NCBI GenBank assembly: GCA_944389125.1
Contig: CALXLF010000002.1
Coordinates: 164,588 to 228,587, forward strand
Direction of reading: 5' to 3'
Origin: an uncultured Clostridia bacterium
GTDB taxonomy: Bacteria; Bacillota; Clostridia; TANB77; CAG-508
DNA length: 64,000 bases
Shown: piece by piece, positions 13,379 through 15,412 of the stretch
Numbering within the stretch: the stretch's first letter is position 1
How the letters are laid out: the number at the start of each line of letters is the position of its first letter
The notes under the pieces: generated by a model
Seen by the model: the letters and a program-made list of their open reading frames with translations, nothing else
What the model was told of the DNA's origin: nothing
Databases searched by the model: none
Made by a program: the position numbers and the translations under genes

Positions 13379-15412
13379 ATGGAATTAAAGTTAACAAATG
13401 AAGAAAGAGAAATAATTAAATATTATAGAGATGAAGCTTTTGAAAATATAAATCAAATGCTTGTTGCTGATAGCAGAATGGATGTTGCTATTGCAAGTGA
13501 TGAGCAGGATTTTGATATTAAAATAAACTATGAAAAAGAAAATGTTGTAAAATATTTAGAAACAGTAAAGAAAATATATGAAATAATGTTAAATTCATAT
13601 TTAAGAAAAGGTGTTAAAAAAGATTGGAAATATTATATGGTTTCTAATATTTCTGATATTCAAAAGTTAAAAAACGAGCCATATATAGATAAATTTTTGC
13701 TATTAAATTCAGAAGAATTACTTAATAAAAAAGATTTAATATTAACAAATAATCAAGTTATAGTTAAAGTTATAGGGGATAAAAACATTCCATATATAAA
13801 TTTAAGTGAAGTACTTGAAGATGATAATGATGAAATTTTAGTATCATTGTTTACAAAACAAAAACAAATTAAAGAATCAAATAATATAAAAATTAATAAT
13901 AAAGATGTACGTACATATGAATTAAAAATTGAAAAGCAAGAATTACAGGAAATGGGTAAAGATGATAAAATTGCTTTATATAATTATATAATATCTAAAA
14001 GCGATTTTGTAAATTCAGCTCTTATGAGTTCTGCAGATTTGGAACGAGAAAATAGTACTATTTTTGAAGAAATAAGAGATTTAGAAAAACAAATATCAGA
14101 TTTAGATACTGAAGTTAATAATAGAGAACTAGAAGGCAACTATGGAGATGCACAAAAAGAGATTGATGATATAAATTTAGATAAACTAAATAAAAGATTA
14201 GAAAATTTAAAGACTCGTTCAACTGAAATATTTGAGGAAATAAAGAAAAATACTAAAAATATAACAGACTGGAAAAAGAATATAACAGTATATTTAATGG
14301 CAGAATGTAGTGATATTAAAAAAGATATCTTAAATAAAATGAAAAAAGAAAATGATATAGAAATTGAGAGAGTTAAAAATTATGAAATAAAAGAAAGAAT
14401 GAAAAACGAAGATCTTAAAAAAGAAAAATTTGAAAATATAGTAAAAGAAGTAAAATCAGAATGTATGGATAATGAAGTTTTAGTAAAAAGATTAATTGGA
14501 GATATTAATAAATTAATTAATAGACAACAATATTTTGCTAAAATTGCAGGCAAGATGGGGGCTTCTTATTCAGCTTTAAATAATGCATTTGAAATGAAAA
14601 AAAATACTGAAGAATTAGAGGAATTGATAGATAAAATTAAATTTAAAGTTGAGGAATTTGAAAATAGTGGAGAATCTGATAAAACATCTAAAGAGTTGCT
14701 AAAAATCTCTGAAGTAAATAATCAAATTACTATTTTAATAAATTATCTTAATAATCCTAAAACTATAGCAGTTAAACAAAAAATTAATAGATTTGATGAA
14801 ATGATTGTTGTTGAAGAAAATGAATTAAAAAGAAATATAGCTAAAGCAATACTTGATGTTATGGGAGAAGCTGAACTAAAAAAATTAAGAGATGATACAA
14901 GAATTATTGAAGATAAAGGTTTTTTATCAAGGTTCTTGGGAATTTTTACAGGAAAAAATAAATTAGATGAGTTTATGCTAGAACAAATTGAAATAAGGCA
15001 AAATTCTATTAAAAAGACTTTATCTAAAAGATTAAGATTAGATTATAATTATAGTATACATGAGCTTTTGGCTGAAATTAGAATGTTTATAAAAGATAAT
15101 GAAGATGATGAACTTGTTGCAGAAGATATACTTGTATTAAAAGATATAGAAAATGAAATTAAGAAAAATTTTGTAATTATTGAAAGTAAAGTAAATGATA
15201 TCATTGAAGAAAAAGAAGATAAAAATTTACCAATAGGAACTAAATTATCAAAAAGAGAACTTATTGAAATTGAGACATATAGATTTTTAAATAAATATGG
15301 ATATGATATAGGAGACAAAGTTGAGCCAAAAGAACCTGTATATGTTGATACAACAGCAAAGGAGATAGCAAGAATTTCGGAATATATAAATACATCTGAT
15401 ATTTTAGATTAA
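13379..15412 (+). CDS. large cytoplasmic coiled-coil protein (677 aa) with a possible ADP-ribosyltransferase-like N-terminal region
   Basis: No signal peptide or TM helix; more than 400 aa of K/E-rich heptad-like sequence. The N-terminal LTNEEREIIKYYRDEAFENINQML resembles the conserved helix motif (LT..E.EAL..Y.....Y..IN..LR) of C3/VIP2-type ARTs. It is followed by YLRKG, YMVSNIS (STS-like) and NSEELLNKK (ARTT-like), but the spacing is compressed. Confidence 0.55.
   Translation: MELKLTNEEREIIKYYRDEAFENINQMLVADSRMDVAIASDEQDFDIKINYEKENVVKYLETVKKIYEIMLNSYLRKGVKKDWKYYMVSNISDIQKLKNEPYIDKFLLLNSEELLNKKDLILTNNQVIVKVIGDKNIPYINLSEVLEDDNDEILVSLFTKQKQIKESNNIKINNKDVRTYELKIEKQELQEMGKDDKIALYNYIISKSDFVNSALMSSADLERENSTIFEEIRDLEKQISDLDTEVNNRELEGNYGDAQKEIDDINLDKLNKRLENLKTRSTEIFEEIKKNTKNITDWKKNITVYLMAECSDIKKDILNKMKKENDIEIERVKNYEIKERMKNEDLKKEKFENIVKEVKSECMDNEVLVKRLIGDINKLINRQQYFAKIAGKMGASYSALNNAFEMKKNTEELEELIDKIKFKVEEFENSGESDKTSKELLKISEVNNQITILINYLNNPKTIAVKQKINRFDEMIVVEENELKRNIAKAILDVMGEAELKKLRDDTRIIEDKGFLSRFLGIFTGKNKLDEFMLEQIEIRQNSIKKTLSKRLRLDYNYSIHELLAEIRMFIKDNEDDELVAEDILVLKDIENEIKKNFVIIESKVNDIIEEKEDKNLPIGTKLSKRELIEIETYRFLNKYGYDIGDKVEPKEPVYVDTTAKEIARISEYINTSDILD

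Follow-up and report, generated by a model that had tools for sequence, protein, structure and literature searches.

A degenerate ADP-ribosyltransferase fold at the head of a cytoplasmic protein family in gut Clostridia

The locus and its product

We analyzed a 64,000-nucleotide stretch of DNA from an uncultured Clostridia bacterium (GenBank assembly GCA_944389125.1, contig CALXLF010000002.1, forward-strand positions 164,588–228,587), referred to here as the window with position 1 as its first nucleotide, and characterized the gene at 13379–15412, which encodes a 677-amino-acid (aa) protein with an N-terminal domain resembling ADP-ribosyltransferases (ARTs). Genes in this part of the window are ordered recA (PF00154, E 3e-145), a small 157-aa gene, the 677-aa gene and trpS, confirming the location after recA given in an original prediction that was made from the DNA alone. 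The small gene named recX in that prediction (12745–13218, + strand) is a tentative assignment, with a RecX_HTH1 match of E 8.9e-4 and 19.6 bits that lies below the threshold of 26.

The 677-aa open reading frame (ORF) is genuine, as first read: it starts with ATG and lies between the ribosome-binding site AGAGGTGA and a hairpin that resembles a terminator. The hairpin proper (15460–15503) lies ~50 nucleotides (nt) past the stop codon and folds with a ΔG of −15.2 kcal/mol (z −4.4; 0 of 200 shuffles equally stable); it was spotted by eye and then folded, a simple terminator scan having missed it. This stable hairpin and the U-run 3′ of the stop indicate that the transcription unit probably closes with the 677-aa gene. 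The 273-nt leader before trpS (15413–15685) has no T-box or other Rfam match, permissive thresholds included, and Rfam scans of the flanking intergenic regions gave nothing meaningful. Composition and hydropathy analysis of the protein found no signal peptide or transmembrane segment (maximum Kyte–Doolittle 19-residue mean 0.75), and the lack of a hydrophobic segment together with a pI of 5.0 is consistent with a cytoplasmic location, bearing out the earlier description of a cytoplasmic protein. Pfam, NCBIfam and PDB sequence searches (the last with phmmer) returned no sequence-family match for the window protein itself. The gene product is a soluble, acidic protein of ~80 kDa built from three modules, laid out as follows.

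13365..13372, + strand: ribosome-binding site AGAGGTGA, with the ATG 6 nt further 3′ (sequence inspection)
13379..15412, + strand: coding sequence, 677 aa, 79.7 kDa, pI 5.0, no transmembrane segment (ORF list, composition, hydropathy)
13379..13948, + strand: residues 1–190, predicted C3/VIP2-type ART fold with degenerate catalytic residues (AlphaFold2, Foldseek, PF03496 matches of homologues)
13961..14248, + strand: residues 195–290, coiled-coil segment (heptad periodicity)
14249..14503, + strand: residues 291–375, K/E-rich linker with a conserved W298-K299...Y305-x-M307-x-E309 motif (34-sequence alignment A1)
14504..15409, + strand: residues 376–677, conserved all-alpha C-terminal domain (conservation, AlphaFold2)
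15460..15510, + strand: intrinsic-terminator-like hairpin, then UUUUGUUU (RNA folding)

An ADP-ribosyltransferase fold at the N-terminus

We modeled window residues 1–200 with AlphaFold2 from an alignment of 32 sequences. The model (predicted local distance difference test score (pLDDT) 85.3, predicted template-modeling score (pTM) 0.79) has three N-terminal helices followed by seven strands and predicts that residues 1–190 carry a complete C2/C3-like (R-S-E) mono-ADP-ribosyltransferase fold. In a Foldseek comparison of residues 1–200 with the PDB, all 50 of the top 50 matches are ARTs of the C3, VIP2, iota, C2, CDTa, Certhrax, Vis, Plx2A or VahC type or anthrax lethal factor, with probability 1.00, E-values from 7.5e-7 to 7e-5 and template-modeling (TM) scores of ~0.5; lethal-factor chains occupy ranks 14, 17, 20 and others. 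Sequence identity of the window N-domain to solved ARTs is 11–16%.

Homologues of the window protein connect this fold to the Pfam family PF03496 (ADPrib_exo_Tox), whose gathering threshold is 23.4 bits. The window protein has no PF03496 match at E ≤ 1 and does not reach the threshold, and 4 of the 34 aligned homologues match at 22.9, 21.8, 17.6 and 16.9 bits, including P0060 (22.9 bits, profile positions 15–128 of 196) and P0058 (17.6 bits, positions 15–179). The distant member P0205 is the sole one above threshold (24.0 bits), and one homologue already carries a precomputed PF03496 annotation. A search for outside relatives of the P0205 N-domain, the most ART-like of the family, returned none.

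The ART-like N-terminus proposed in the original prediction is therefore supported by the structural model, the Foldseek top 50 and the homologue PF03496 scores; a model lacking an ART fold had been named there as the outcome that would speak against it, and the model has the fold. The alternative offered alongside, a chance resemblance, is excluded by the Foldseek top 50 together with family PF03496 scores of 22.9–24.0 bits. The domain had also been called "minimal or degenerate", of which degenerate holds and minimal does not, since the predicted fold is full-length at ~190 residues.

Catalytic-site residues of the window protein

Region patterns of this ART group have been described (Fieldhouse et al. 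2010, PMC3000352; Mikolcevic et al. 2021, PMC8120803). In region B, a helix, an aromatic residue is followed by a "vital" Asn and then a Leu; in iota toxin these are Y251, N255 and L258 (PMC3000352). Region 1 is [YFL]-R-X at the end of a strand, with the Arg binding the NAD+ phosphates; region 2 is [YF]-X-S-T-[SQT]; an aromatic residue in the PN loop stacks on the nicotinamide; and region 3, the ARTT loop, has the form X-X-phi-X-X-[EQ]-X-E and carries the catalytic Glu (PMC3000352, PMC8120803). Iota-toxin mutants changed at these residues (R295A, R to K, S338A, E378A and F349A) have 0–5% activity left (PMC3000352).

We located the corresponding positions in the window protein using A1, a 32-sequence N-domain alignment (A2) and an alignment that bridges the window N-domain to distant relatives with canonical motifs (A4).

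13391..13462, + strand: region B helix (LTNEE..KYY....INQML), residues 5–28; modeled helix 7–28; kept
13634..13642, + strand: region 1 position, Y86-M87-V88; strand 83–90; under YRG in A4; Arg replaced by Met
13694..13708, + strand: region 2 position, F106-L-L-L-N110; strand 107–110; under FLSTT in A4; S-T-S lost
13826..13834, + strand: region 3 position, N150-D-E152; strand 152–155; under E-K-E or E-R-E in A4

Region B is retained: window residues F21, N25 and L28 correspond to the iota Tyr, "vital" Asn and Leu, with N25 and L28 invariant in A1 and position 21 a Tyr in most intact relatives. The helix motif LTNEEREIIKYY....INQML singled out in the original prediction is thus a true ART region B helix. 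The patterns of region 1, region 2, the PN-loop aromatic and region 3 are all absent from the window protein. Region 3 has lost the first Glu/Gln (N150) and kept the last Glu (E152) within an ARTT window VLEDDNDE that has no aromatic residue, and the PN loop reads L-N-K-K-D-L-I-L-T, again with no aromatic residue, versus G-Y-F-S-L-N-W in intact relatives, a mapping that is approximate because the alignment is gapped here. The A4-mapped positions M87, LLN108–110 and N150-D-E152 coincide with modeled strands 83–90, 107–110 and 152–155. The window N-domain accordingly has the makeup of a pseudo-ART, an ART fold that has lost its catalytic and NAD-binding residues.

This mapping displaces three of the four motifs first assigned, each of which sits one structural element too early. 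The Arg of YLRKG (R76) ends helix 53–76 and is not in strand β1; YMVSNIS (85–91), read as the STS motif, is strand β1 itself and holds the Arg position; and NSEELLNKK (110–118), read as the ARTT loop, follows the STS strand at the PN-loop position. The unusually short spacing between motifs reported at that stage is therefore an artefact of their misplacement.

Loss of canonical motifs across the family

The most distant family members display Y-R-G-T, F-L-S-T-T, G-Y-F-S-L-N-W and W-E-K-E-[IV]-L-L-S-P-F, all on the same architecture, and an intermediate clade (P0058–P0066) retains R-G, S-T-T and the last Glu. We took a motif census of 204 distinct full-length members. Among the 58 members whose C-terminal domain is ≥65% identical to that of the window protein, none retains region 1 or region 2; the full set of three regions is confined to the most distant group, where 7 of 20 members have it. 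In close relatives the Arg site varies among M, L, K, Q and Y and the STS site among LLN, ITD, FAT and FVS. The eight closest relatives all have E152, as do 136 of the 179 family members. The N-domain is not decaying: A2 has fourteen invariant positions, among them a derived KNE.YID motif ahead of the former STS strand; within KNE.YID of the degenerate clades, N99, E100, I103 and D104 are invariant in A1.

With the Arg, the S-T-S motif, the PN-loop aromatic and the first Glu/Gln all lost, the window ART domain is very probably a catalytically dead pseudo-enzyme, as judged from its sequence, and we hold with high confidence that it combines an ART fold with loss of the canonical activity. Because the canonical motifs are common to the distant members of the family and the wider ART superfamily, we infer that the ancestor was an active R-S-ExE enzyme, an intracellular ART that was probably Arg-directed, and that catalysis was lost on the way to the window clade.

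A conserved helical C-terminal domain

Downstream of the ART fold, heptad periodicity is significant across residues 195–290 (period-3.5 power z = 4.6 versus shuffles) and absent from residues 376–677. The coiled coil of more than 400 aa originally described is in fact confined to ~100 aa, with residues 376–677 modeled as a compact helical domain. In the linker between these modules, homologues insert up to ~200 aa, seen as split hidden Markov model (HMM) matches in the longer homologues.

Residues 376–677 form an autonomous, strongly conserved helical domain without a known relative. This is the most conserved part of the protein (conservation 0.70–0.74 versus 0.54–0.59 elsewhere), with motifs QQ.FAKIA, NYLNNPK, RFDE, EENELKR, GEAELKKL.DD, G.FTG.N, YS.HE, NLP and IEIETYRFLNKYGYD. 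It folds confidently on its own into a compact AlphaFold2 model (pLDDT 86.5, pTM 0.80) and is also found as stand-alone proteins of ~330–400 aa. A profile search of the PDB with the C-domain alignment A3 found no sequence relatives, and Foldseek found no fold relatives in the PDB below E 0.26. Foldseek matches to the ESCRT-III proteins CdvB and IST1/CHMP1B were considered and set aside as too weak (TM 0.2–0.3).

Short paralogues of ~330–355 aa that consist of the C-terminal half only occur at loci L033 (4842–5909), L068 (3681–4745) and L071 (4299–5282). The paralogues are soluble, with no transmembrane segment, and those of L033 and L068 lie directly upstream of the full-length gene.

Distribution and gene neighborhoods

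Searches yielded 556 homologues at E ≤ 0.001. The full-length homologues listed are nearly all 655–701 aa and are annotated at most as "hypothetical protein". A scan of one genome per species placed the gene in 65 genomes, with one locus per species genome, and all 65 are metagenome-assembled genomes of uncultured animal-gut Clostridia, including Candidatus Scatovivens. An exhaustive search of 1.84 billion representative proteins with a C-domain profile HMM returned only 89 representatives at E ≤ 0.001, indicating that the family is small and lineage-restricted. The window organism has a GC content of ~25% and encodes GerA and SpoIVA, which marks it as a spore-former. PADLOC and PHROGs gave no match, and neither did tblastn searches of a phage collection, queried with the window protein and with the N-domain of P0190, or of a plasmid collection, queried with the P0190 N-domain only. 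The family is not a mobile or conflict gene; it is single-copy, vertically inherited and found in core-gene settings.

Across 68 loci the surroundings fall into several arrangements.

26–30 loci, upstream: ftsE, ftsX, two M23/PcsB-type peptidases and a CtpB-like S41 protease
26–30 loci, downstream: the gene of a 348-aa membrane protein and, after it, the S10 ribosomal operon
18 loci, upstream: a LonC-type protease, 29 nt away
~8 of 68 loci, including the window: recA-recX upstream, trpS downstream

The intact-motif member P0190 adjoins uvrB. The LonC-type protease gene (for example L034 3283–5691; within a few kb in L004 and L006) and the family gene could be a co-transcribed pair in that sub-clade. 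The 348-aa protein (L047 8687–9733 and 29 other loci) has an N-terminal transmembrane helix and DxDxDG-type (FG-GAP/VCBS-like) repeats, no Pfam match and no counterpart in the window. No adjacent macro-domain, ARH or immunity-like gene was seen at the loci inspected.

In many Firmicutes, rny is located after recA, and the window gene had been described as sitting in this RNase Y slot. The position after recA-recX is occupied in only ~8 of 68 loci, and because the neighborhood differs between sub-clades, the slot is a coincidence of the gene order of one sub-clade. The 677-aa protein has none of the KH domain, HD domain or transmembrane segment of RNase Y, and we rejected RNase Y replacement on the missing KH/HD domains and the rarity of the recA-adjacent position. 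No rny was found within the window by Pfam scans of the large ORFs and a signature search, which is weak evidence.

Additional features of the window

Several other genes in the window are noted for annotation. Two convergent full-length leucyl-tRNA synthetase genes, 55% identical, lie at 2622–5066 (+) and 5128–7545 (−); the minus-strand leuS lies where, alone in the window, GC content is higher (0.33–0.38 versus ~0.25) and the skew is reversed, and may be a horizontally acquired second copy, possibly with a resistance or auxiliary function. A 339-aa protein (7897–8916, +) consists of a class II aminoacyl-tRNA synthetase (aaRS) core only (tRNA-synt_2, E 1.8e-34), without an anticodon-binding domain, and may be an AsnA-type or aaRS-paralogue enzyme. 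The obg gene is split into two overlapping ORFs, 17101–17388 and 17303–18379 (+), with GTP1_OBG positions 1–82 in the first and positions 78–154 plus the GTPase in the second, a frameshift that is either an assembly error or a pseudogene. Downstream, a MiaB/MtaB-type radical-SAM methylthiotransferase (UPF0004 and Radical_SAM; 18598–19260 and 19265–19834, +) is cut inside its Radical_SAM domain by a stop that falls between positions 89 and 96 of the profile. A 948-aa ORF at 59788–62634 (+) has no Pfam match at E ≤ 1e-5 and is unrelated to the 947-aa VWA protein beside the gene of P0060.

A proposed scaffold descended from an intracellular ADP-ribosyltransferase

We favor, with moderate confidence, the interpretation that the window protein has no enzymatic function and serves as a scaffold, its ancestor having been an intracellular ART. 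Architecture and analogy point to a scaffold or adaptor role in particular, for which we see about even chances. The protein would act without catalysis: the C-domain would supply a conserved interaction or assembly function, the coiled coil would dimerize and space the heads, and the dead ART head may bind a partner that was once modified by the ancestral enzyme, comparable to binary-toxin A components and lethal factor. Several observations weigh against this interpretation. E152, the "vital" N25, other N-domain residues and the derived KNE.YID motif remain conserved, and the head could still bind nucleotide or hold another activity. Profile searches of PDB sequences with N-domain alignments A2 and A4 reach no ART, and the residue mapping consequently rests on family alignment and secondary structure and not on direct superposition. 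No conserved partner gene accompanies the family across the 68 loci.

Some chance, though well short of even, remains for a cell-division or envelope cytoskeletal scaffold in the manner of EzrA, DivIVA or PcsB-associated proteins. The ART head would then be accessory, and this explanation is compatible with the non-enzymatic scaffold we favor. The genes upstream of the family at 26–30 loci include ftsE, ftsX and PcsB-type peptidases, yet the neighborhood changes by clade, with LonC at 18 loci, recA-recX at 8 and uvrB for P0190. The stretch of the C-domain that matches EzrA is only ~90 of 303 residues long, these matches are ranked alongside de novo designed bundles and proteins unrelated to it, Foldseek reports nothing at E < 0.26, and the protein has neither a membrane anchor nor a Pfam division-family match. 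We rejected an EzrA relationship as such, the ~90-residue structural match being no better than that to designed bundles and hence a generic resemblance.

It is unlikely that the N-domain is still active, either as a non-canonical ART or NADase or with a new activity on the ART fold, using E152 and the derived N99, E100 and D104 as active residues while the rest of the protein provides targeting. Conservation gives this explanation its footing, with E152 present in 8 of 8 closest relatives and 136 of 179 members, N25 and L28 invariant in A1 and KNE.YID conserved in the degenerate clades, and divergent ARTs with an altered triad do exist, such as AcrIF11 and Arr (PMC8120803). Against it, five NAD-contacting or catalytic positions have been swapped for residues unable to substitute, and the same positions vary freely in close relatives, as expected when constraint on a former active site has relaxed.

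It is very improbable that the protein serves as a toxin, secreted or delivered by contact, as a polymorphic-toxin effector or as an effector of anti-phage defense, even though the structural relatives are nearly all exotoxins and distant members have an apparently intact R-S-ExE site. The protein has no signal peptide or transmembrane segment, Pfam scans detected neither a delivery domain (LXG/WXG or other) nor a B-component, and no immunity-like, macro-domain or ARH gene is adjacent. The PADLOC, PHROGs, phage and plasmid searches were negative, each of the 65 species genomes has one copy, set among core genes, and the window copy lacks the catalytic residues. Finally, a chance likeness to ARTs or a replacement of RNase Y at the recA locus is refuted by the fold search, the Pfam scores of homologues, the missing KH/HD domains and the recA-adjacent position in only ~8 of 68 loci, despite the window protein alone matching no ART model and occupying the rny site of many Firmicutes.

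The scaffold interpretation can be extended, speculatively, to an endogenous ADP-ribosylation system of gut Clostridia in which basal members modify a conserved target and the window clade regulates that target by binding alone; we regard this as possible and rather less likely than its absence. The ftsEX-M23-Ctp and LonC neighborhoods would then place the target possibly in division, the envelope or proteostasis. If this holds, the basal members would be Arg-type ARTs held on a coiled-coil and helical-domain scaffold, and the proteins would form a single orthologous series running from enzyme to pseudo-enzyme, with a helical domain that is a new fold.

Relation to known ADP-ribosyltransferase systems

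To our knowledge, nearly all ART-fold domains described so far belong to secreted toxins, to effectors of conflict systems or to a few regulatory enzymes. The closest comparison is with the R-S-E toxins (C3bot, C3larvin, Plx2A, Vis, Certhrax, VIP2, Ia, C2-I and CDTa; PF03496), which share with the window family the Y..IN..L helices and the split β-sheet core; distant family members also carry [YFL]-R-G, F-L-S-T-T and E-x-E, and one passes the Pfam threshold. Unlike these toxins, the window protein lacks the Arg, S-T-S, PN-loop aromatic and first Glu/Gln, has no secretion signal or delivery partner and carries the ART at the N-terminus of its 677-aa coiled-coil and helical chain; in commensal gut Clostridia its gene belongs to the core genome, in one copy.

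There is precedent for dead ART folds: binary-toxin A components (Ia, C2-I, CDTa, VIP2) have one as their N-terminal adaptor domain, and lethal factor has a VIP2-like domain of this kind. Crystal structures of lethal factor, VIP2 and Ia show inactive ART-fold domains serving in binding or substrate recognition. Such domains belong to secreted toxins and originated either from duplication next to a domain that is active or through fusion with a protease, whereas the very probably dead domain of the window protein is the sole ART of a cytoplasmic protein that has intact, orthologue-like relatives of the same architecture. DraT, SCO5461 and Tre1 resemble the intact ancestor we propose, as R-S-E ARTs that act on bacterial proteins inside cells (PMC8120803). 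They differ in having no detected sequence relationship to the window family beyond the superfamily and in lacking the coiled coil and C-domain; DraT and Tre1 also pair with a DraG-type hydrolase or an immunity protein, neither of which adjoins the window family. EzrA and spectrin-like bundles differ from the window protein, which has no N-terminal membrane anchor or sequence-family match.

The ART superfamily and pseudo-ART domains are already known; new here are the way the modules are combined, their placement in a cytoplasmic protein of the core genome, the series of active sites from intact to dead inside one family and the unrecognised C-domain. In commensal gut Clostridia, the family gives an ART architecture that is cytoplasmic, belongs to the core genome and is inherited vertically, and its members range from apparently active (R-S-ExE) to clearly degenerate forms. 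This range makes it a tractable case for studying how an enzyme turns into a pseudo-enzyme, and it may help to find an endogenous ADP-ribosylation target in Firmicutes, should one exist. The C-domain adds a helical domain of ~300 aa that has so far gone unannotated and that Pfam, NCBIfam, PDB-sequence and PDB-fold searches do not recognize. For annotation, neither "toxin" nor "active ADP-ribosyltransferase" fits the window protein.

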